A stretch of 64,000 nt of DNA, taken from IMG/VR virus record IMGVR_UViG_3300013901_000006, positions 15,774-79,773 of that record; one strand, 5' to 3'. This stretch comes from a virus. Lineage: Duplodnaviria; Heunggongvirae; Uroviricota; Caudoviricetes. The notes under the pieces were generated by a model. The model did no database searches. It was not told the DNA's origin and saw nothing but the letters and a program-made list of their open reading frames with translations. Each line of letters opens with the position of its first letter. Positions within the stretch are counted from its first letter, which is position 1. The position numbers were made by a program, and so were the translations under genes. Positions 9,338-25,558 of the stretch are shown one piece after another.

Positions 9338-9455
9338 AAGATTATAATCAGTGCTTTTGTTGGTACTGTTTATATATTAGATACGAGAACAAGCGCGTTA
9401 CGTTCTTGTAACTAAGGAAAATGTATACAATTTCTATCAAAAGGAGAAAACATTT

Positions 9456-12400
9456 ATGAATCGCTTTGGTGTGCGTGAAATCTGTGATGTTGTCTTCAAG
9501 CCTCTCACTTCCGTTGACCTTGGTGGTCAGCACTTTGACGCTGGTCAGCCTATGCTTTATATTGATACTGCTAAGACTTCCAGCCTTGAAGGCGCTGCTA
9601 CTACAGTCTACGCGCAGGGCAATACCTTGTAAAACCCCCCTTAATAGTAATATTGAGGTAAACACCGTTTGAATTGCTGGGAGATGTTATTTGGCAGAGG
9701 TAAAATATTATGATAAGATAGAGTCAAATAAGAAAATCAGCATCGAAGGTGTAAATATTATGAAAATTTGTTTAAATAAACGCAATTGGTCATATCTTAC
9801 GAAAGACATAGTATTTACATAACGTTCAACGACTATCCTATATGGAGTAGCGTCAAGTGACGCGAAGTGAATGGATTCCTGTACGCAGGAATAAGATATA
9901 GTCTGGTCTATATTGGAAGATATAGCAGTTACATAACTGTTCCTATAAAGTAACGTTTTAGGAATAACAAAATCGGGCAAGGGTAATCCACGTCTTATCG
10001 CTTGGGAAGAATGTCTATAAACTGCTCAAGCCGTATCTATATTATGATACGTAAAATAAAATTTTGTGAATTGCGAAAAACCCCAATTAGATGCTATTAC
10101 AAGTTTAAAATAAAGGAGTAGTAAATGAATAAATTGGGCAATTCGCAGCCAAATCTTGAAAGTAAATTTTTAAAAGAAAATGATAGTTATTTACTATATT
10201 CAGATGGTAGAATTTTAAATGTAAAAACAAATAAATTCTTAAAAGGTAAGATTGATAACGTTGGGTATCATACATATATATTACAGATTCCTGATGAACT
10301 GTCTGTTACCAGAAAAAAGAAAAGCAAAAATGTTTATGCTCATAGACTTGTAGCGCAATATTTTTTACCAAATCCGAATAATTTACCTTATGTTCATCAT
10401 AAAGATGAAAATAAATTAAATAACAATGTAGATAATTTAGAATGGGTTAGTGCAAAACAGAATAATGCTTATCATCGAAAAAAGAATGGAAAGCAAGAAT
10501 GCAGACCTCCGAAATATCACATTGTGGATTTAGAAGATGAACAGTGGATGATTTTTCCTGAAAATGAATTATATTCGGTATCAAATATGGGAAGAGTTAA
10601 AAATAATAAAACCAATAGGTTATTACATTTAGATACTACTCAAAAATATGTTCGTGTTAATTTGAATACAAAAAAGCACTATTCTTTAAATAGAATAGTA
10701 TATTGTACTTTTCATAACGATTTTGATATGGAAGGTTATGTTATTGACCATATTGATAATAATCCAAAAAATAATAAATTAACTAATTTACAGAAAATTA
10801 CTTTTTCAAAAAATAATTTACGTCAAGATAGGTTCAACGACTAACTCTCTAAGAGTGTAGATTTGTTTAAATCGAAGTGCAAAGTCTTAGGAATTAACCA
10901 AGACAAGATATAGTCTAAGCTGTATGTATATATAAAGATACAGATAATATAAATGTGGTGAAAAGACACTGACCCTAAAATCTTCTTTTGTTGGGGTCAT
11001 TAAAATTCTTGAATTGCGGGAAACTCTTTAGAGTTCTATGGTACCGTATTATGCGCGGTAATAAGTCATAGAAATTAGACAATCCGCAGCCAATATAATG
11101 GTTCAACGACTATCCTGTAAGGAGTACGTCTTAATATACATTAAGATGGAAGCGAGAATATTTTTTGTGTGATATAGTCTGTGCATGTATGAAAATACAT
11201 ATAAAATATATAATAGATACATTTCAGAACCATCGAAGATGCCTTAATGAGTCCTGTCAGCTTTGCAATGCTTTCTGGCGCGGGTCTTGTTAAGGGTAAG
11301 AAATCTGAGAATGGCACAAGCACTCCTGTTTACGTCCATGCTACCTATGATATGGTTGCTGAGACTGTAGACGGCAAGCTCGTTGCTCAACTCACAGATG
11401 AAGACCGTAACGGTGCTACTATCATCGTTACAAAAGAAGCTCCTATCTATCCTGTCACTCTTGACAGCGCTGGTGCTCAGGCCAATTACCTCTCTGCCGT
11501 AACTGAATCTCAGGTTATGACTTCTGACGGCAAAGCTCTTACTGCTGCCGAAATTGGTGAACATGGTGAGGTTAAGGCTAACGGCAAGACAATCGCTTTT
11601 GTTCTTGCGGCTGATACCCCTGGTGACCAGAATCAGGATAAGGGCGTAAAGACTGGTGATACTGTACGTATTGACTGCTATGAGGTTCATTACGATGAAG
11701 CCTATGAAATGCAGATTGATGCCGAGAACTTCGCCGGTTACTATTACATTGAGGCTTCCACTCTCTTCCGTGACGAAGAGACTGGTAATGACCTCCCCGC
11801 CGAATTCGTCATCCCTCGCGGCAAGATTCAAAGTAACTTTACCTTTACGATGGCAAATTCAGGTAAAATAAGTTGCCTGGCTGCTTAGTAATAAGCAGAT
11901 AAAATTTATTTTTTTAATTGCGGGAATCTCCTTAGAGCTTCTAAATACCAACTTATTAAATAAGGGCTGAATTAATTACTCAGGTATGGTAAAAAGTTTA
12001 GAAGATTGGAAAATCCGCAGCTAAGTGACTTGACGTTTTCTTTTTCTTATGATATGATATTATTATATAAATAAAAATATTGAAAAGTGATATTATATGA
12101 TAGAGAGAATACATAATTTTTTACCAAATGTAAAAGATTATTATGCTATAAGCGATAAAGGCGAAGTGTATAGCGATAATTTACATGGACGGCCTTTAAA
12201 GAAAAGACTAACACGTGCAGGATATCATCGCGTAGCTCTTTATTGCTTAGATGGCTCTTGTAAAGAATATAGTATTCATAGATTAGTAATGATGGCTTTT
12301 AGCCCTAATGAAAATTCTGATTTTTTGCAAGTGAATCATTTAGATTGTGACCGAACTAATAATATTTTGGAAAATTTAGAATGGTGTACTCCATCTGAAA

Positions 12401-12980
12401 ACCAATAGTATGCAGTTAAATTAAAAAGGTCTAGAGTTGCAAATCAGTATGGTGAAAGCAATACAAATTGCAAGCTGACTGATGCGCAAGTTAAAGAAAT
12501 TTTTGAATTAAGGAAATTAGGATGGACACATCAAAAAATAGCAGACAAATATCATGTTTCTCGTAGACATGTGGGAAACATTTTACAAGGTAAAAGAAGA
12601 CAAGTTAAAAGTTAAACGACTATCCTTCTATGGAGTAGCTTATGAATAAGCGAAGTGGAAAACCCCACAATATTTGTGGGTGAAGATATAGTCTCAACTT
12701 GTAGGAAACTACAAGCTACTATTTATGTAGTGCGTATATAACCAAATGCGCAAAGATTTTGGACCCATCTACCTTTACATTTACTATCGATTGTATGCCT
12801 GCCTACACCAAGTTCAATAAGAAGAAGAAGGTTATGGCTACGCTACAAATCGTTGATAAGACTGACACTACCCACAACTACAAGAACAAAGAAATCCTTG
12901 GTCACGATGGACGTACCAAGGACTCTGATGTGAATAGTTGGTACACTAAGTCTGTCTTCTCCGAAACAACGGGGGAATAG
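9456..12980 (+). CDS. Major tail (tube) protein, split into 5 exons by 4 group I introns
   Basis: Exons 9456-9620, 9976-10009, 10958-10976, 11228-11864 and 12762-12980 sum to 1074 nt (357 aa + stop). They read MNRFGVREIC...TVYAQG|GKGNPRLIAWE|GEKTLTL|TIEDALMSP...MANSG|DPSTFTF. Junctions 1-2 are approximate. Confidence 0.85.
9621..9975 (+). mobile_element. Group I intron 1 of the major tail gene (no intact HEG)
   Basis: Conserved core elements GAATTGCTGG, AATCAGCA, GTTCAACGACTA and AAGATATAGTCT; GNRA-capped P2; terminal G at 9975. Confidence 0.85.
10010..10957 (+). mobile_element. Group I intron 2 of the major tail gene, carrying an HNH HEG
   Basis: GAATTGCG, TTCGCAGCC, GTTCAACGACTA and AAGATATAGTCT core motifs; terminal G at 10957. 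Confidence 0.85.
10125..10844 (+). CDS. Intron-encoded homing endonuclease with two NUMOD4/HNH-like units
   Basis: HRLVA...VHHKDENKLNNNVDNLEWV and a second unit IDHIDNNPKNNKLTNLQ. The stop codon overlaps the intron P7 element. Confidence 0.85.
   Translation: MNKLGNSQPNLESKFLKENDSYLLYSDGRILNVKTNKFLKGKIDNVGYHTYILQIPDELSVTRKKKSKNVYAHRLVAQYFLPNPNNLPYVHHKDENKLNNNVDNLEWVSAKQNNAYHRKKNGKQECRPPKYHIVDLEDEQWMIFPENELYSVSNMGRVKNNKTNRLLHLDTTQKYVRVNLNTKKHYSLNRIVYCTFHNDFDMEGYVIDHIDNNPKNNKLTNLQKITFSKNNLRQDRFND
10977..11227 (+). mobile_element. Group I intron 3 of the major tail gene (ORF-less, 251 nt)
   Basis: Canonical P1 TGACCCT/GGGGTCA with U.G at the splice site; core motifs GAATTGCGGG, AATCCGCAGCC, GTTCAACGACTA and GATATAGTCT; terminal G at 11227. 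Confidence 0.9.
12030..12058 (+). promoter_or_regulatory. Sigma70/sigmaA-type promoter for the intron 4 HEG
   Basis: TTGACG-17 nt-TATGAT with an extended TG, upstream of ATG 12097. Confidence 0.6.
12097..12615 (+). pseudogene. Intron 4 HNH homing endonuclease interrupted by an in-frame TAG (12406-12408)
   Basis: HNH motif VNHLDCDRTNNILENLEWCT. The same frame continues after the TAG into an HTH-like domain, ending at TAA 12613-12615. Confidence 0.75.
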
Positions 12981-13120
12981 ACGCCGCAACGTCTCATGAT
13001 TCTGCGGCTAATGTAGGTAAAGACGTAGTTGCTGATGCAACTGAATCAACAGTAGATACTGTAAAAGTTGAAGCCACTCCCAAGGTTTCTGACCTTCGCA
13101 GTGTTCGCTAGTTAGACTTT

Positions 13121-13157
13121 AAGGGACGTTTCCTTTGGGAGCGTCCCTTTTTTATTT
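13121..13157 (+). terminator. Rho-independent terminator
   Basis: AAGGGACG...CGTCCCTT stem + T tract, the same stem core as the terminator at 5327. Confidence 0.8.
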
Positions 13158-13160
13158 AAG

Positions 13161-13218
13161 AAATAAGCAACTAAAATAGTTGCTTTTGTGTTTTAGAAAC
13201 TATTTTAGTTGCTTATTT
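13161..13218. repeat. Perfect 21-bp inverted repeat with a 16-nt spacer
   Basis: AAATAAGCAACTAAAATAGTT (13161-13181) and AACTATTTTAGTTGCTTATTT (13198-13218). Confidence 0.9.
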
Positions 13219-13231
13219 TTAGGAGGATATA

Positions 13232-14704
13232 ATGAATGCAGTGAGTACATATATACATTATCATGCTGAAAATATAACCCCCCAGCAATATACTATTGAA
13301 AATTTAGAGAGTGCAAAAAAGAAAATAGTGGAAGATTTTTTTAAGACTTCATTAGAATCATTAAAATTCTCTAACCCGCAGGCTGAGATTGATGCTAAAA
13401 CACTGTCGGATTTATTAGATGCATTAGGCGGAAAAACTGGTTTAATTGGCTCTAATTTAATGCAAAATTTGCAAAATGCTGATTGGCTTTTTAATGCAGA
13501 CGGCACAAGTAAGCTACCAACGGGAGCAGGTATAATTAATGAGTCGGAATCAGATGAAGACCCCCACATTCCAGATTATGCTACGAAAATATCTGATGAA
13601 GTTAGCAATCGCTTACAAAGTATTATTGATGTAATGTCGCAATGTGGAGAGTCTGTTCTTGTTAGTCAATTACAAGCAGTGAAAGACGGCAAAGGATTTA
13701 TCAGTGGTGAATTGGAAGTGTTAAATGGGAAATCTTTTTCTAGAAACGATATAGAGGGAGCGAACCAAAAAGTAATAAATGCGATGCAGCGATTACATAG
13801 TGACATTGAAGTATTAAATTCTTTTGCTAAAAATAATGGCGGAGTTTCAGATAACGTATCTTATAATTCACTTATTAATTCTGTTAGAGGTTGCTTTAAT
13901 ACAATCGGTGGCTCTTTATTTGAGGTCGCTGTAAAATATATCGGGAAGCATAGTAAAAATTATTTTGCGAATCATATTGAACCTCAAATAGATGCAGCGT
14001 TTGCTAACAGTGGCGGCAAAGTAATTAAAGACGCTGCTCATACTGGAAATAAAACATTAAATGGTCGAGAAGTCAAAAATGATGTTGAAATGTTTTTTAA
14101 TGAGAATGGCATTACTTTTATAATTGGTATTAATGTTAAATTAAACAATCAAATTAAACAACATTTAGGTAATAATATTACCATTAAAAATGTTCAAAGT
14201 GGAATGACTTTTGGGAGTTTTCTTGAAAATGGAAAAGCCAATAAAGATAATATTAAATGGATGGAAGGGCATATAGGCGCATTAAAAATGAAAAAAAATG
14301 GAAAAGATGTCCCTTATGTATTGTCAAAAGGCTTAGATTCCAATTTTAATAATATGAAAGAATTTTGTAAATATAATAATGCTGCTATTGCTTTAACTGG
14401 TTCAGGGAACTTTCAAAAACATGATTTTGCTTCTCTAATGGTCGTAAATAATAAAGTATTTTCTATGTATGATTTATTAAAATTATTGGCGCAAGACTTT
14501 GATGAATTTGCTTCGTTTAGCGGATTGCCGAGTTCAATGTCGAATTATAGAAGCAGCATTTCCCATGCGGTCAGAGAAGCGGCAGAAAAAGGCCCATGGA
14601 TGAAAACGTACCGCTCTAATGAAACTATTAATATTATTAATAGGATGTATGCCAGAAAAGTTTCTATGACTTTATATTTTTCTAGAGCAATGATGGCGCT
14701 TTAG
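13232..14704 (+). CDS. Hypothetical protein (possible PD-(D/E)xK-like fold)
   Basis: 490 aa, AGGAGG SD, AT-rich. The FE...KNDV...GINVK spacing is only suggestive. Confidence 0.5.
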   Translation: MNAVSTYIHYHAENITPQQYTIENLESAKKKIVEDFFKTSLESLKFSNPQAEIDAKTLSDLLDALGGKTGLIGSNLMQNLQNADWLFNADGTSKLPTGAGIINESESDEDPHIPDYATKISDEVSNRLQSIIDVMSQCGESVLVSQLQAVKDGKGFISGELEVLNGKSFSRNDIEGANQKVINAMQRLHSDIEVLNSFAKNNGGVSDNVSYNSLINSVRGCFNTIGGSLFEVAVKYIGKHSKNYFANHIEPQIDAAFANSGGKVIKDAAHTGNKTLNGREVKNDVEMFFNENGITFIIGINVKLNNQIKQHLGNNITIKNVQSGMTFGSFLENGKANKDNIKWMEGHIGALKMKKNGKDVPYVLSKGLDSNFNNMKEFCKYNNAAIALTGSGNFQKHDFASLMVVNNKVFSMYDLLKLLAQDFDEFASFSGLPSSMSNYRSSISHAVREAAEKGPWMKTYRSNETINIINRMYARKVSMTLYFSRAMMAL

Positions 14705-15536: not shown

Positions 15537-18500
15537 GTGATTACGATTAGTAAATATTCTAATACTATTGAGTATAATCTACGGACTACATTAGATAATA
15601 GCGGTTTGTCTAGACTGCAATCTGAGCTTGCTAAAGTGCAACAACAGATTACGTCTATGCAATCTCAAAATTTACTTTCTCCTGGAACTGCTCAGAAAGC
15701 TTTAACTGATGTTGAAAAGGTTTCTAGCGCTCTAAAGAAAAGTTTTAATTCAAGTTTGGGTATGCTTGATATTTCAAAAGTTACAAAAAATCTAAGCAAT
15801 GATGTAAACCTTAAAGGCCTTCAACGCAGCTTTGAACTTGCAGGTACAGAAGGGCAAAAAGCATTTTTAGATGTCCTTGGCTCTCTTGGTAAGCTTGATA
15901 CAGGTGTTAAGGCCACAAGTTCACTTGTAGATAAAATGTTTAATACTATGGGCAATACTGTTCGTTGGGGTATTATGTCAAGTGCTTTTAATGGCGTAAC
16001 TGATTCTATGCGGCAGGCAGTAGATTACGTTAAGGAACTTGATGATTCTTTAACTCAAATTCAATTGGTTACTAGCTATAGTAAAGATGATATGAACCAA
16101 TACGCTAAATCTGCGAATGAAGCGGCAAAGTCATTGGGTAGTACTACTACTGCTATGACTAATGCTGCTTTGCTATTCACGCAGGCTGGTTTCTCGTTAG
16201 ATAAGTCTAATGATTTGGCTAAATTGTCTACTAAATTGGCTAATGCTTCTCAACAAGACACTGCTACGACTTCTGACCAAATTATGGCTTATATGAATGC
16301 TTATGGTATGGACAAAAATCTTGACCAACTTCAGCAAGCAATGGACTCTTGGGCAGAAGTAGCGAATGTATCTGCAGCTGATGTTAAAGAATTAGCGGAA
16401 GCGTCTCAAAAAGCGGCATCATCTGCTGCTACGTTAGGCGTTTCTACAGACCAATTAAATGCACAGATTGCTACCATCGAATCTGTAACTCGTGAAGATG
16501 CATCTAATATCGGAAATGGCCTTAGAAAAATTGCTTAGGGCATAAAAAGAATTAAAAGCTGGGAAACCATAAAGCAACTTTGCTTATTTATATAATTTTT
16601 ATCTTTGTGTATAAATAAGAGCGAAAGCAGAAACAAATAAGTTGATGATTATATGATATTATAATGTAATTATAGTATCTAAGTAGTTAAGAATTGGCAA
16701 TCAGCATTATAGAAAAAGGAAAGATAAATGGCTAAGAAAATTACTCAAGAAGAATTTGAAAAAAGATTTTATAATAATTATCCAAAATGCAATATAACAG
16801 TGTTGGAATATACATCTATTTCTCGTCCTGCTAAAGTATGTTGTAATGTGTGCGGCAAAATCCATACTCGTTCGACTGCTCGCCAATTTATTAATGGTTT
16901 TGACTGCTGCCATGCACATGATGAGACGAGACTTGAAAAGGTGCAGCGCTTATTAAAAGATAGCGAAGATTTTGAATTTATTAAACAAATAGATAGAGAC
17001 AATATTATTGTAAAACATAAAACGTGTGGTAATGAGATGAAGCGGGCATTAAATGCTTGTTTAGATAATCCGTATGCTTGTAAATATTGTGACACTCGCA
17101 AAAAGAATAATATGCTTACTGTTGATGAAGTTCAAAAGATTATTGATGACAGGTTTGGCGGCACGATTAAACTTTTACAATACAATGGGCAATTAGATAA
17201 AAATTATTATAGGTGTACGAAATGCGGTAAGATTTTTGTACAAAAACAGACCTGTTTAATGCAATCTAATGGTTGTCCTACGTGCGATAGATTTAAATCT
17301 ATGGGCGAGCAGCGAATTAAACGTTTGTTAGAATCTAAGGGGATTAGATATATTGAACAATATTATACTCCAGATTTGCCGTTACAACATTTTGATTTTG
17401 CTGTGGTGGACGATGCAGATAATGTTTTATATTTTATTGAAGTGCAAGGTGAGCAGCATTTTAAAGAAAATAATTATTTTAACACTTCTTTAGAAGTACA
17501 GCAGTTTAGGGATAATAAAAAAAGAAAATATTGTAAAGAAAATAATATTAAATTATATGAAATCTTGTATTTTAAGAGTAAGTTTAAAAATTTAGAGATA
17601 TTACCTTTTCTATAATTCAACGACTATTCCCGTTAAGGGAAGTACATAGCAAGCTATTGGCTATGGAAATATTGCTTTACCTGTGAATGGTTAAGATATA
17701 GTCTATTCTATATGGAAACTTATAGCTGAATTACAGTATTGGATAGTAGCGTGTCCAATAGAATATTATAAGAAAGACAATTTTTGCACGCTTTTCTGAC
17801 CTAAAGGCGGGCGAGACATTAGACGATAATATCACTTTAGGCGATGTTACTAAGCAGCTACAAAATGCTGGCGTTAACGTATTTGACCAAAATAATAATA
17901 TGCGTAATGTTGGCGATATGATGGAAGACTTGATGGGAGTTTGGAAAAATTTAGATCAGACACAGAAAGCTGCCCTTTCTCAGTCATTGGCAGGTAAATA
18001 CCAAGTAGCTCGTTTTCAGGCATTAATGAACCGTTCTGACTTGTATGACCAGTATAAAGATGCGTCAGAAAATGCCAATGGGACTCTTGATACTATGAGT
18101 GATAAATATGTTAATTCGCTTGAAGGCCGCATGAATAAACTGCAAGCGTCAGCGGAAGGTCTTTTTAATGACCTCTTTGATACAGAAGACTTTTATGCGC
18201 CGGTGGATGCGTTGACACAATTGGTTGATTTAACTGACCAGTTTGTTAATGCTCTTGGTGGAGTAAAAGGAATGCTTTCCGCCATCGCTCCTGTCGCAAC
18301 GCAGGTATTTGCAAAAAATATTGGCCAAGGTATTTCTAATGCAATTTATAATAATCAACTTTCAAAGTTACAAAATAATAATAAGAATCAAGCCTATGCT
18401 AAAATGAAGCAAATGGGCATTGAAGATGTAACAGATAGGCGTTATAGAGATGTTGCTAATTTAATTCAAGATGGACAAAGTCATGCTCGTATTATGACTG

Positions 18501-21500
18501 ATGACCAACAGAAACAGTATAATTCTATTCTTGAGGACGAGATTGCGTTTAAGAAAGAATCAATTGATTTAGAGAGTAAATTACAAACGTCTGTAGATGC
18601 TACAAATTCTGCGTATAAACTGCGTAATCAAACACTAAGTAAAGACCTGGAACTTATTAAGGACGAAGAAGGTAACATTACTGGTGTAAATACTGCTGGG
18701 TTACAGAATGTTATTTCTAAAAGGGGTATTGATAGTCAATTAGATTATAATACTCCAATCGATAAAAAAGCGTTTGCAAGCTATAAAGCGGATGTTAATA
18801 CTGCTAGTGAAAGTTTTGCAGATAATTTAGCTCAAATTGGTAATATGAATATTGCCGAAGCGAAAAAGTATATGGAAGATTATATTGATGAGGTTTTTGG
18901 AGCTATTGGTACTATTGAAGAGCTTACGAAAGCCCATAAAATGAATAATGCAGAAAATCAAGAAGCAGTAGAATCTGTACGAGCATTAGTGAACGTTCTT
19001 TCAGATGAAGATGCGACAACATCTGAACTTCAAACTGCGTATCAAAGATTGTCAGAAGCTATGAATGCTGTAGAAAAAACAACAGACGGCTACAATAGTA
19101 AACTGGTAAAGACACAAGATGAATTAAATTCTTTGTCTTCTAAATTGCAGCAAACCGAATCTGCGTTTGATGCTGCAAAAGCCCGTGGAAAAGCTTTTGT
19201 TGAATCTATTAGTTTTGCAAGCGCAATTGCTCAAACATTACAATTTGCTGGTGCGGTTGGTAATCTTGCCTTCGCTTTTCAACAAATAAAAGATATTGGC
19301 GATATTTGGGACGATGATGATTTAACATCAGGAGAAAAGTTATTACAGACTTTAATGTCAATTGGCACAATTGCCCCTATGGTCGCGCAATCGCTATCTA
19401 CATTTAAAAATATTTTAAGTCTTGATAGTATAAAAACTTTAACAGGCGATTTAAAGAATATCGCAAAGACCGTCAATGGTGGTGGGGAGGCTGGTACAAC
19501 GGCAACTGAAGCTGCTGATACTATTGCTACTACTATGAACACCAAAGCAGAGCAAGATAATACAGTTGCTAAAAATGAGAATGCCACTGCCAAAGGCAAA
19601 AGCGCCATCGCTTCTGGAGAAGAAGCAAGTGCTGATGCGGCTGATACTACTGCAACCATTGCGAATACACAAGCAGAGAAACTAAATACTGCGGCAAAAG
19701 CAGAAGGTACCGTTGCAGCGCAAAACGCAGGAAAAGCCATAGAAGAAGTTGCTACAACTACTGCGGCAGGTTCTGGAATCTTTGCTACTTTAAAAGCGAC
19801 TATTGGCGGTTTGGCAGGCGCTTTTGGAGCGTTGGTTTCTGCCGCTTTGCCATATTTAGCTATAGGTGGGGCCATTGCAGGACTCGCATATCTTACTTGG
19901 AAAGATTTAAATCGTGATGCTATTGCCGCAGACGAAGCTCAAAAGGCTGCTAATGATTTAGCACAAACGGCGGGCGATGTCGCTACCGAATATCAAGAAA
20001 TCCAAAATTCTTATCAATCATTGCAAGACACAATTACGTCATATAAACAGTCAGAAGAAGCGGTAGATAAGCTTAAAAAGGGTACGACCGAATGGAAAGA
20101 TGCTCTGGCAGAAGCTAATAATAACGTGCTATCTCTTCTTAAATCATATCCGCAATTAGCAGGATATTTAAGAAAAGATTCTAACGGAAAGTTAAGCATT
20201 GCAGATGAAGGATTAGATAATTTACAAACAGAATTAGCTCAGCGTAATGCTTATGGACAAATGGCAGTTGCTATAGCACAAGATAAAGCAAATTCTGCCC
20301 AAATTGAAGCTAATAATAAAGAGCTACAGACGAAAATTAAGTTTACCGCTCGCAATGAAGCGATTAAAACAGACCCCAGAGATGTTTCACAACCAACACT
20401 TGCTGAAAACAATGGGGCTACGCATAATAAATATAGAGCTATAAATGATGATGAATTACAAGCTATTTATTCTATGCTTAAAGCCAAGGGCGATAATTCG
20501 ATTACTTCTAAAAGTGCAATTAAAGAAGCGTTAGCTGGCACATCGCAAGTCGGCAATTCTGAATTAATTAACGCTATTATAGAAAATGGCGATAAAATTG
20601 TTGCTCAATTAAAAGTAAACGAACAGCTTGATCAACAAAATAAAGAAGCCATGCGTAATGCGGCGCAAAATGCATTAAATAACACTGACGGCTATGACTC
20701 TAATCAAAAAAATAATCAAGCTGTTGTTGATTTAGTTGCTCAAGCAGCGTCTAATAATATTGATAAATACCAAAAAGATTTTGAATCACAAGATACAGAA
20801 ACTCTTGGAAAATTATATGCGCAGCAGCAAGGGTGGACTTATAAATCAGAAGATGGCGGTAAATATAAATTTACTGATGCTTCTGGACAAGAGCAAGAAG
20901 TTTCGAAAGAAGTTTTAACAAATTATCTTGCTGCGGCGAAAGCTATGAATGAAGCCGCTGCGAATTGGCAAGAAAGTGCTGCTCAAGTTGCTCAAATTTC
21001 TAATTCCGCTGTTGGTTCAAAATATGGCGAAGATGCTGTTAATGTAATTGCTAATGGAACTAAAAAAGGTGGATTTGATTTTTCATCTTTATCTGGCTCT
21101 GAAATTATGTCTTTACAAGAGTCTGATATTAGTGCTAGCTCTCTTGGTATTAGTGATGATTTTGCAAAACAAGCAGGTTTTAAAGATGCGAATGCTTATG
21201 CAGAAGCTTTTCAAAAAGCATTAAATGCATATGACTTTAGAGATAATGATTTTCTTGATTCTAATTGGGACAGTCAGAAAATAGCAGATAAATTATCTTC
21301 TGTTGGAGAAGATGCTTCTAAGCTTGATGAATACAAACAAGCATTAAAAGATACGAATTCAGAATTTAATAATTACGCATCAAGTGTTGAAAATAATAAT
21401 TTAGAACTTGAAAAACAGAATGAAGAACTTACTAATTCAAATAAGGCTTTAGATGCTTCCAGCGATGAATGGAAAGCGAATCGCAAACAAATAGATGATA

Positions 21501-24500
21501 ATAATAAAGCTATCCAAAAAGCCAATGACAGATATGATGAGCTTGCTGCAAAAATTGTCGTTGCGCAAGATGGTATGGATGGATTAAAAAAGATTTTTGA
21601 GGAAACGCAGAATCCACTTGAAGGATTGGACCAAAATTCTGCTGATTATACAAATACTATTGAGCAAATTTCTGAATCGCTTCAAAATATGCTTAACATT
21701 GACATGTCAAATTGGTCACTTGGAGATAAAGCGTCTTTCATTTCATCTAATTTAGATGATATTAGAGCTGCTGCCGAAGGTGATATTGACGCACTACAAC
21801 GTCTTCGTGAAGCTGCCGCATCGCAAATTTTGATTGAAGCTGGTATTTCTCCAAATACAGATGCGAATTTGTATAATGGAATGATGTCCATTATATCTTG
21901 GGTTAATAGTCAGCTGCCAGACCTTGAAGCTGGTGCGACTATTGACACTGGTCCGTTTATTGAAAAGCTTCAAGAGATGATTTCAGAAGGGCATTATACT
22001 GCTAGTGAGTTAGAGACTATTTTTAAAGCTCTTGAAGGACTTGGTTTAGACTGCTACATTGACTATGAAGCAACTGATATTAGTTTGCCTGAAATTGAAG
22101 ATTCTGCTAAAAAGGCAGCAAAAGGAGCTAAAAATATCGCTGAAGCTGTTGGTGCTACTATTGGCTCAACCATAGGCAGCGTTAAAAGGTCTATCGCTTT
22201 GCCGAAAATTAAATCTGTTGTTAAAATGCCAAATAGTTCCGGTTCGCATAATACAGGCGGAAGCGGAGGAAAAGGCTTAGGCTCAACGGGTGGTTCTGGT
22301 GGAAGTGGAGGAAATAAAGGCGGCTCTGGTGGAGGTTCCGGCTCTGGTGGAGGTTCCGGCTCTTCGTATACCGCTAAAGAGAAAAAAGAAATAGATAATG
22401 AAATTGACTTATATGAACGTGTTAATACTATTCTTGAAAAGGTCAATAATCAATATGAACAGCTCAATAAAGAACGCGAACGTTTAACCGGTAAAAAGCT
22501 TGCGGAAAATATTTCCAAAGAGACTGCATTATTACAGCGTCAAATTGATGTTCAAAAAGAAAAGCAACAGATTCAGAATAAGGAAGCTGCTGATTTACGG
22601 AATGAGCTTTCTTCTAATTATGGGGTACAATTTGATTCCGAGGGATATATCGCCAATTATGCAGATGTATATAACAAGTTAGTTAATAAAGTTAATGAGC
22701 TTGGAGCTAAATATCCTACATTGACCTCTGATGACCAAGAAAAAGCTTTAGATAAAGAGTATGAAGCAGCAGAAAAAGCGCTTGATAAATTCAACACCAA
22801 ATATAAGAGGTATGACGAACTCTTCGCTGGCGATATGGAAGATACAAAAAAGTCAATTGAAGATTTACAAGATTCAATTGAAGATTTGCGAATCAATGTA
22901 CTTAAAACACAAGTTGAAGCTATGGATAATCTTAAAGATATTCAAGAAAAACTTGTAGATTTTGACCGCGCTTTTAATCGTGGCATTGAGCTTACTCCAT
23001 ATGAAGAAGCGCAAGATAGTATCGCAAAACTTGGTAAATACTTTGATGTTGCGACCATGAGTGCAAATGAGTATTATGATACTTTAATCAAAGACCAAGA
23101 GGAAGCGATGAATGCGGAAGGTACTTCCGACGCATATAAGAAATGGGCTTCCAATCGCATTGCAAATCTAAAGGCCGCGAAAGACCGCGCATTGGCGGGA
23201 GATACTTCTGTAGATTATTACGGCACTGGTTATTTTGATATGTCTATGAAAAATCTTACAGATATTTCAGAGCAGATGAAGCAATTCAATGAAACCGGTA
23301 CCTCTGACATATTCGGTGAAGATTCAGCTGACCTGTATGACGTTGCCAAGACAGTATATGAACAGGCTACCAGCCTTGTTTCTGACTATTGGTCTGAAAT
23401 TGAAAATCTTCATGGTCATATTACTGATATGATTGACGACATTTCAGATAGAATGGACCGCCGCAAAGACCAATATGAAGCTATTACCGATGAATTACAG
23501 CACCAAGCAGATATTATTGAGCTTCTTCATGGTGAGGAATCATATGATGATTTAAATAAGGTCCTTGGTGCGCAGCAGAATAATTATCGTGTTGAACTTT
23601 CTGAACTCATGCAGCAGCGTGACGTTTGGAAAGATATGCTGGGTACTCTTGAAGAGGGTTCCGAAGAATGGAATACTGTTTCAGACAAGATTAAAGACGC
23701 TACTAGCGATATTAATGACCTTATTAAAGATTCTTTAGACAATCTACAGCAGCAATATACAAATACTGTTTCCAAGATTACAAAGGCATGGACAAATAAA
23801 GCTGTCGGAACAGACCTTGATTGGATGAATACTCAGTGGGAGTTAATTAATCGCAATGCTGATTACTATCTTGATGATGTGAATAAATCTTATAACATTC
23901 AAAAGTTACAAGGCAAATATCTTGACCTTTTGGATAACTCAAATGATTTATCTATTCAGCAAAAGATTACCAATCAAATGAAAGAACAATTGTCTTACCT
24001 GCGGGATAAGACGAAACTTTCTGAGTATGATGTTAATTATGCTAATGCTCAGTTAGAAATTCTCCAAAAGCAGATTGCCCTTGAAGAAGCACAACGTAAC
24101 AAGTCTCAAATGAAGCTACGTCGTGATACGCAAGGCAATTATTCTTACGTATATACCGCGAATGATGACAATGTACGCAGTGCGCAATCTGATTTACTTG
24201 ATGCTCAGAACAATGCGTATAATCTTTCCAAAGACCAGATGAAGCAAACTCAGTCTGATTCTTTATCAGCACTACAGGATGCTCAATCTACAATCAATGA
24301 TATTTGGAATAATGCAAATCTTTCTCTTGAAGAAAAGACTGCCCGCACAAAGACTATTGTTGATTCGCTGAAAGAGTATCTAGCTGGCACAAGCGAACAG
24401 CTATCTACGTCTGAAAAGAACATCATCAATGATTTCATTGGTATGTGCGACATGCTCACCGATGAAAACAAGAATAATCTACAAGATACTTACGACCAGA

Positions 24501-25558
24501 TTATTCAGGGTAACAATGATGCATTCGACCAAATTGATACTCGTTGGTCTACTTCAATTTCTGATTGGCTACAGAATATTGATGACTTCAATACCAGTAC
24601 CGATGATATGTTTAATCAGCTTGTTAAGAATGGTCAAGATTACGCAGATAGCACCAAAGAATTAGCAGATATTGCAAAAACTAACTTCGACGATGTAAGT
24701 GGCGCAATTGAAAATACCAATAAAAAGACAGAAGAGCTTGCCAAGAGCACAACAGACTTCATCAATAAGTTGAAAGACATGTCTGGCGAAGTCGCTAAGA
24801 GTGAAGCAACGATGCAAGATTATGCGAACCGTATTCTTGACGCAAACAATAATATGCAAGCCTTTAAACAGCAAGCAGATGATTTGGCGAACCAGCTCTC
24901 TAAGAAGGAACAGGAAAACGCTGACCTTAAAACCACTATTTCCAATTATGAGAAATATGGTCAAGCTACAGTTCCTACGTCAGGTGGAGCAGGTGGCGGT
25001 ACAAGCGAGGAAATCGCTTTCGGTATCGCACAAAATATCTGGACTTATGGTTCTTGGGCTAATGACCCAGTGCGCCGCAACCGCATCATTGAACGCTACG
25101 GTGAAGGGGTTGCAAATCGTGCGCAACAGATTGTAAATGAATATATTTACAGTGGACGTGCGGCTCAACTTTATAACCCAGCTTCTGGTGCCTATGGCTA
25201 TGATACTGGTGGTTATACTGGCACATGGAGCGACAAGACGGCAGAAAAGAAAGATGGCAAACTCGCTTTCCTGCATCAGAAAGAGCTTGTTCTTAATTCT
25301 ACAGACACAGCGAATATTTTGGCAGCGGTTGAAGCAGTTAGGAATTTTGCCAATAGCGTCAAATCTAATGCTATTTCTTCTTCTCTTGGTGCGGCAATCA
25401 GTCAGCTTGCCCGCACAAAAGATGATGGAAATAACTCTATTGAGCAGAATGTTCATATTACTGCTGAATTCCCTGCGGCCAATAGCGCTGCTGAAATTGA
25501 ATCTGCATTAATGTCTCTGAACGACAGAGCTGTACAATATGCTTATAAGATTCGATAA
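15537..25558 (+). CDS. Tape measure protein (about 2,923 aa spliced), split by one group I intron
   Basis: Exons 15537-16522 and 17773-25558 join as ...NIGNGL|KTIFARFSDL... The TP901-type TMP core (AQIATIESVTREDASNIGNGLKTIFAR) is followed by long coiled-coil/amphipathic repeats. Confidence 0.9.
16523..17772 (+). mobile_element. Group I intron in the tape measure gene
   Basis: P1 GCCT|TA pairs with TAGGGC (U.G at the splice site); core motifs AAGCTGGGAAA, AATCAGCA, TTCAACGACTA and AAGATATAGTCT; terminal G at 17772. Confidence 0.9.
16728..17615 (+). CDS. Intron-encoded endonuclease: repeated CxxC zinc-ribbon units + C-terminal Vsr/DUF559-like PD-(D/E)xK domain
   Basis: Multiple CxxC pairs; SMGEQRIKRLL...HFDFAV...FIEVQGEQHF...DNKKRKYC motif. 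Confidence 0.75.
   Translation: MAKKITQEEFEKRFYNNYPKCNITVLEYTSISRPAKVCCNVCGKIHTRSTARQFINGFDCCHAHDETRLEKVQRLLKDSEDFEFIKQIDRDNIIVKHKTCGNEMKRALNACLDNPYACKYCDTRKKNNMLTVDEVQKIIDDRFGGTIKLLQYNGQLDKNYYRCTKCGKIFVQKQTCLMQSNGCPTCDRFKSMGEQRIKRLLESKGIRYIEQYYTPDLPLQHFDFAVVDDADNVLYFIEVQGEQHFKENNYFNTSLEVQQFRDNKKRKYCKENNIKLYEILYFKSKFKNLEILPFL

Follow-up and report, generated by a model that had tools for sequence, protein, structure and literature searches.

Introduction

The closest described counterpart of the gene reported here is orf142 of Staphylococcus phage Twort (Landthaler and Shub 1999), which encodes the tail tube, is interrupted by three self-splicing group I introns and has an internal exon of 23 nt; its splicing and exon skipping have been demonstrated (described in PMC11878797 and PMC10136302). 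We describe a gene of an uncultured phage that occupies positions 9456-12980 of a 64,000-nt stretch of DNA (hereafter the window; positions 15,774 to 79,773 of IMG/VR virus record IMGVR_UViG_3300013901_000006, which is 145,027 bp long and rated 94% complete). It is highly probable that this is a single tail-tube gene made of five exons and four IA2-like group I introns, the splicing of which is predicted. An earlier note on this DNA, made from its letters, had placed four group I introns in a major tail gene at this position and had named orf142 as a precedent for several introns in one late gene. Four introns are indeed found there, all matching the Rfam model RF00028, and the precedent is a fitting one, since orf142 also encodes a tail tube and also has a very short exon between introns.

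In both phages a late structural gene, that of the tail tube, contains at least three closely spaced group I introns of the IA2 type and at least one internal exon shorter than about 35 nt (two in the window, of 32 and 21 nt; 23 nt in Twort). The two cases also differ in several respects. The protein of the window is a siphovirus YomU-type protein of 357 aa whereas that of Twort is a myovirus tube; there are four introns and not three; HNH genes are present in two of them; the U.G pair is missing at two 5' splice sites; and splicing and exon skipping were demonstrated for orf142, whereas for the present gene they are predictions. Phages of the Bastillevirinae also have several group I introns per gene (up to three) separated by small exons, detected with the same Rfam-based approach, and exon skipping was observed among them, but the genes concerned are those for DNA polymerase, terminase and nucleotide metabolism, with no tail gene among them and no gene that has four introns (PMC11878797). 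Cluster J mycobacteriophages resemble our case in that the group I introns of these large siphoviruses interrupt virion structural genes and occur in some members while close relatives lack them; their capsid and minor-tail genes, in contrast, have one intron each, with splicing proven by reverse-transcription PCR, and the tail intron shows a U at position -1 and a terminal G (PMC3706429). Finally, a micro-exon of about 30 nt has a parallel in the 23S rRNA of Coxiella burnetii, where two group I introns flank a 34-nt exon, although that is a bacterial rRNA gene and not a protein-coding gene of a phage (cited in PMC10136302).

Results

The exon map was made by aligning full-length homologs (355-360 aa) and their DNA to the window (Table 1). 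The exons add up to 1,074 nt, that is, 357 codons and a stop, and the introns to 2,451 of the 3,525 nt, with introns 1, 2 and 3 spaced by just 53 nt of exon; the earlier note had arrived at the same totals. The exons are free of stops and frameshifts, and once joined they encode a protein that aligns end to end with the intron-less homolog P0004 (317 of 357 residues identical, 89%) and with P0013 (311 of 357, 87%), without gaps at the junctions in either case. Alignment to intron-less homologs, which had been proposed as a check, thus agrees with the reconstructed 357-aa protein. None of this is apparent from the list of open reading frames (ORFs), in which the gene is represented by fragments only, as had been pointed out: its start (58 aa), its middle (213 aa) and its end (73 aa), beside two ORFs of the HNH type. 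The middle fragment, which corresponds to exon 4, has 3,792 homologs, the full-length forms of which measure 355-360 aa, and the best-listed database homologs are themselves mostly pieces that start or stop at intron sites (about 100 of the 120 best protein clusters). The genome is present at a depth of 53-90 in four sequencing runs. An independent 75-kb contig from one run, X1, spans the whole stretch with 5 differences, and the four-intron arrangement is therefore not an assembly artefact.

Table 1. Features of the tail-tube gene and its flanks (positions in the window).
Feature	Position	Strand	Evidence
Ribosome-binding site AAGGAG, 9 nt before ATG	9441-9446	+	Read from sequence
Exon 1, 165 nt, codons 1-55, ends GGC	9456-9620	+	Protein 100% identical to residues 1-55 of P0013 and P0004
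Intron 1, 355 nt, phase 0, last base G	9621-9975	+	RF00028, 37.9 bits, E 2.6e-7
Micro-exon 1, 32 nt, codons 56-65 and GA of Asp66	9976-10007	+	Protein alignment; 3' end from the X4 allele, L025 and L068
Intron 2, 948 nt, phase 2, last base G	10008-10955	+	X4 allele without intron 2; split RF00028 matches
Homing-endonuclease gene in intron 2, intact, 239 aa	10125-10844	+	HNH_3 (twice) and NUMOD4
Micro-exon 2, 21 nt, T of Asp66, codons 67-72, CT of Leu73	10956-10976	+	X4 allele; protein alignment
Intron 3, 251 nt, no ORF, phase 2, last base G	10977-11227	+	RF00028, 58.1 bits
Exon 4, 637 nt, codons 73 (third nt) to 285	11228-11864	+	PHROG 2729, E 3.3e-16; 3,792 homologs
Intron 4, 897 nt, phase 0, last base G	11865-12761	+	RF00028, 37 bits, E 5e-7 (3' half)
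Homing-endonuclease gene of intron 4, broken by TAG at 12406-12408	12097-12615	+	First 103 aa match HNH_3 and NUMOD4
Exon 5, 219 nt, codons 286-357 and TAG stop	12762-12980	+	Alignment with homologs
Terminator-like hairpin, 13 pairs then a T run, 3' of the gene	13121-13149	+	Read from sequence

The label of major tail gene is supported. The family PF27173 (YomU_Tube) is precomputed on 120 of 120 homologs among the matches listed, with YomW and YomV as neighbours, and a profile of the family matches a solved tail-tube protein (E 0.005). When an AlphaFold model of P0013 was compared with the PDB, the 17 best Foldseek matches were all tail-tube or major tail proteins of phages, with E values down to 2.4e-7. 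The gene order is also that of a tail-tube gene: portal and head genes are followed by this gene, which sits two genes upstream of that of the tape measure (start at 15537). Family, fold and position before the tape measure gene thus agree, and the protein is that of a siphophage tail tube, from a long-tailed phage of the SPbeta/YomU type.

The catalytic core of a group I ribozyme is recognizable in all four introns. Rfam covariance models give four matches on the plus strand of the locus, one per intron. The match of intron 3 (10967-11201) is above the RF00028 gathering score of 50 bits; those of introns 1 (9587-9925) and 4 (12549-12715) are below it, and that of intron 2 is split into two pieces of 23 and 16 bits (10072-10184 and 10861-10935) that flank the HNH ORF. 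ORF-less introns at the same sites in relatives reach 61-81 bits, those at sites A and B 70-81 bits (at site B, that of intron 2, in L037, L115, L025 and L068; at site A, that of intron 1, in L027, with 71.8 bits). Each intron ends with the terminal guanosine (omega G, at 9975, 10955, 11227 and 12761) and contains, once each and in order, the core motifs AATTGCNG, a P4'/P6 strand of the CAGC type, T(C/A)AACGACTA and GATATAGTCT; cmscan alignments concur with this ordered core (P3-P4-P6 and P7 strands). In the case of intron 2, the 3' half aligns with ORF-less relatives, and P2, P4 and P5 differ from them through paired changes (the 5' half was compared by eye, MAFFT having misplaced it against these relatives). 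Global identities among the four introns were discarded as a measure, as they are inflated by gaps.

The boundary of intron 2 is the point on which our map departs from the earlier note, which had divided the 53 nt of exon into micro-exons of 34 and 19 nt. Both this split and the 32 + 21 nt split of Table 1 are in frame, the former reading WEGEK and the latter WDGEK. The decision comes from run X4, in which a near-identical 83-kb contig (a handful of differences; depth 53) has introns 1, 3 and 4 and lacks exactly positions 10008-10955, joining 10007 to 10956 with no mismatch and no ambiguity. This contig is a natural allele without intron 2, so that the presence of this intron is currently polymorphic. 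In addition, the intron found at this site in L025 and L068 starts with AAGT following TGGGA, and all homologs of the clade that were read have Asp at position 66. The 34 + 19 nt split is thus ruled out by the X4 joint, by the loss of the invariant Gly67 that it would entail in L025 and L068, and by the Asp of the clade homologs.

In the proposed mechanism, the late transcript would form a single precursor in which each intron would fold into its own ribozyme, its internal guide sequence pairing with the last 4-8 exon bases (P1), and would be excised by two guanosine-initiated transesterifications; the five exons would then be joined into a 1,074-nt frame that yields the 357-aa tube protein. 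Splicing is predicted to occur exactly at the mapped junctions, 9620/9976, 10007/10956, 10976/11228 and 11864/12762. A P1 helix is found in four of four introns. It has the U.G pair at the 5' splice site in introns 3 (TGACCCT, 10970-10976, with GGGGTCA, 10993-10999) and 4 (TCAGGT, 11859-11864, with GCCTGG, 11875-11880), both of which also show a P10 (AAC with GTT, and GAC with GTT, respectively). For introns 1 and 2, P10 is weak or missing; the splice sites of these two introns are the least certain and the most interesting part of the model.

In intron 1, GGGC (9617-9620) pairs with ACCC (9634-9637), leaving C9620 opposite A9634. Among ten introns at site A, from several lineages, U at position -1 always comes with a guide G (L022, L107, L108, L109, L113), and C at this position always with a guide A (the window, L115, L020, L027, L028). 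Exchanging C.A for U.G retains the wobble geometry and supports both the pairing and the splice site of intron 1. Two other solutions were considered and rejected. A canonical one, in which the exon ends in AAT with U at -1 and the 3' site falls after 9981, deletes a residue and alters the conserved GGKGN; an alternative P1, formed by GCAGGG and CCTTGT, is not present in L020, L022 and L027 and hence is not a conserved pairing. CCTTG could instead be the P10 partner of 9978-9982. In intron 2, P1 is formed by 10000-10009 and 10022-10031, with nine of ten positions paired and a sole mismatch, A.G, at -1 (A10007). This layout is kept in four sequence variants that show compensatory changes at two or three of the exon pairs, and all four have retained the guide G opposite A(-1). 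A U is excluded at position -1 of intron 2, which is the second position of the Asp66 (Asp/Glu) codon. We find it rather likely that two natural ribozymes, predicted to be active, work without the near-universal U.G, one with C.A and the other with A.G.

Several observations weigh against the reading of the locus as a functional tube gene with four active introns. Three of the four introns score under the Rfam gathering threshold, owing to ORF or loop insertions. Two of the four 5' splice sites (C.A in intron 1, A.G in intron 2) are without a pair that is conserved and required for activity in the Tetrahymena ribozyme (PMC1891724). No RNA run holding the sequence was present among the sequencing runs searched, and in X25, a wastewater sample and the only run labelled RNA-Seq, no junction for the tube gene was found among the contigs. 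Finally, the structure model of P0013 is of moderate quality only, with a mean predicted local distance difference test score of 66 and template modelling scores of 0.2-0.44.

Some of these points could be taken to mean that the gene is damaged, intron 1 and/or intron 2 being no longer able to self-splice, and that the phage is either defective or in need of a splicing protein from the host or the phage. Besides the requirement for U.G in model ribozymes, this would be in line with the loss of the endonuclease gene and the low RF00028 score of intron 1, and with the behavior of several phage introns of the Bastillevirinae that are spliced in infected cells only, and not in vitro (PMC11878797). 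We nevertheless consider it very improbable: the irregular pairs recur across several diverged lineages with compensatory changes around them, the A(-1) of intron 2 is fixed by its codon and faces a guide G kept in four variants, the exons have neither stops nor frameshifts and remain 89% identical to intron-less homologs, and the depth of the genome in four runs is unlikely for a dead phage. The preferred reading remains that of a functional gene with four introns.

The contigs of X25 pile up exclusively on conserved segments of the intron cores (9808-9934, 11840-12093 and 12602-12728; summed depth 89-1,310). With a similarity of 85-95%, they presumably derive from other phages that carry related introns. 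The cross-intron joints 9845/11103, 10925/11072, 11033/12002 and 12389/12678 were rejected as splicing events: their sides are short (21-27 nt) and reflect the similarity of intron cores instead.

The earlier note had gone further in proposing that the micro-exons serve in both P10 and P1, which would impose a fixed order of removal and throttle the supply of tube protein through splicing. Three ribozymes just 32 and 21 nt apart give such a model its appeal, interactions are known between tandem group I introns that surround short exons, as in the exon skipping of Twort orf142 and of engineered Tetrahymena pairs (PMC10136302), and four serial splicing events must reduce the yield somewhat. The sharing of bases is nevertheless not borne out. 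P1 takes the 3' ends of the micro-exons (10000-10007 for intron 2, 10970-10976 for intron 3), while the P10 of the upstream intron would take their first 3-7 nt, so that the two segments do not overlap; moreover, a possible P10 segment is seen in micro-exon 1 (9978-9982) and none is evident at the start of micro-exon 2. In the X4 genome, introns 1 and 3 flank one 53-nt exon with intron 2 missing, and relatives carry the introns of sites A, B, C and D alone or in varied sets. As each intron occurs without its neighbours in other genomes, each should work without them. An enforced splicing order is not supported by these comparisons, and the model as a whole is most improbable. A tube supply limited by splicing is possible, and some loss of yield over four splicing steps, together with some exon skipping as in Twort, is likely.

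Such skipping might also be productive, if leaving out micro-exon 2, or both micro-exons, gave rise to a second protein next to the complete tube protein. Exon skipping is known for the 23-nt exon of Twort orf142 and for a Bastillevirinae gene (PMC10136302, PMC11878797), the length of micro-exon 2 is a multiple of three, so that its removal is in frame, and core motifs are common to all four introns. Yet the seven residues encoded mainly by micro-exon 2 include the invariant G67, E68 and T72, so that a protein made without them would hardly function as a tube subunit, and we regard an alternative splicing that matters as improbable.

Discussion

The introns of this gene would be selfish mobile elements caught at different stages of the homing cycle. 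The ORF of intron 2 contains an HNH motif and a DNA-binding module (HNH_3, 64 bits, E 9.6e-18; NUMOD4, 40.6 bits, E 2.9e-10; PHROG 59, E 3.8e-52), and it is predicted to encode an active endonuclease. It begins in the P5 loop behind an AAGGAG of its own, extends across P5', P4' and the loop of P6, and ends within the P7 strand. The endonuclease gene of intron 4 has a TAG at 12406 where the intact 172-aa ORF of L027, which carries the same type of intron at this site, has Gln, and its frame runs on past the TAG to 12615 through a helix-turn-helix-like tail. Recoding of this TAG as a sense codon was rejected, as the tube gene itself ends with TAG where its homologs end. In intron 1, the ORF at 9691-9822 is a remnant made of only the first and last codons of an HNH gene of 175-188 aa that is intact at site A in L020, L022, L028 and L115; by blastn against L020 and L115, an internal deletion of about 460 nt has removed the rest. 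Intron 3 is without an ORF. From intact through stopped and deleted to absent, the endonuclease genes read as the decay series expected for homing elements, with all its stages side by side in one locus. The introns are located where the gene is most conserved, in two stretches (codons 55-73 and codon 285) of the kind that homing endonucleases target. Intron 4 also contains a promoter-like site (12030-12058: TTGACG, 17 nt, TATGAT with an upstream TG), a consensus match only, 39 nt before the start codon of the endonuclease.

This family of tube genes is an intron hot spot. The gene is uninterrupted in most of 74 IMG/VR relatives and split in 16 of them, at the four sites of the window or at neighbouring ones. 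Adding contigs from Logan, ENA and JGI to the IMG/VR relatives, we count at least 10 insertion sites: after codons 6, 55, 58, 64/65, 66, 67/68, 73, 285, 288 and 289. Introns at sites A, B, C and D occur singly and in many combinations; L068, for instance, has four introns and exons of 23 and 21 nt. A pattern scan of IMG/VR for further site-B introns yielded none beyond those already known. The most extreme case is found in L113 (593-3700) and L114, whose lineage comprises 96 sequences and includes a contig of 152 kb, and where one tube gene gives five matches above the Rfam cut-off. There is a further intron after codon 6, with a LAGLIDADG-like ORF (faint Pfam match), and some exons measure just 17, 9 (GGCAAAGGT) and 19 nt; in L113, six bases of the 9-nt exon make the P1 of the next intron. 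These matches suggest five or six introns in the tube gene of L113. At the other end, the gene is intact (344 aa) in VRE9_2 and VRE9_4, two cultured relatives that infect Enterococcus. A megablast of the region against cultured phages gave no match, and a blastn of intron 3 gave weak core matches only, in a Flavobacterium phage and in a Bacillus phage. In L111 (about 1500-2530), an intron located after ATCGGGT (codons 63-65) seems to end with A and not G, if the conserved Trp-Asp is to be restored.

What is new with respect to known systems is that one more intron is present than in the published phage cases that we found, in a different family of tube proteins and with two unusual splice-site pairs. 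The four introns exceed the three per gene published for Twort and the Bastillevirinae, and the relatives suggest that this number may rise to five or six. The irregular pairs, if functional, are useful natural variants for ribozyme chemistry; if both introns splice efficiently, they become natural test cases for relaxing the wobble rule at the splice site. Near-identical genomes with and without intron 2 make a natural pair of alleles. On a more practical side, gene callers fragment an abundant virion gene, and a large group of uncultured phages has mis-annotated tail-tube proteins as a result.

The genome of this phage is rich in introns. Further group I matches are found elsewhere in it, at 14081-14184 (plus strand), 80523-80800 (minus) and 107503-107578 (minus) in the numbering of the genome and not of the window, one of them at 55.6 bits. 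The tape measure gene (15537-25558) also looks split: an N-terminal piece of 333 aa (15537-16538) that matches tape-measure families is followed by a 295-aa ORF for an HNH/intron-encoded nuclease (16728-17615), and then by the 2,552-aa remainder (17900-25558).

The stop codon of the tube gene lies at a run of five G, after which about 45 codons of the -1 frame remain open, as far as the strong terminator of Table 1 (12969-13149 in all). Some homologs have longer C-termini in frame (446 aa in L031, 438 aa in L052). Past the terminator, a near-perfect palindrome (13155-13224) draws spurious matches to microRNA families on both strands, at 41 and 37 bits, below their cut-offs.

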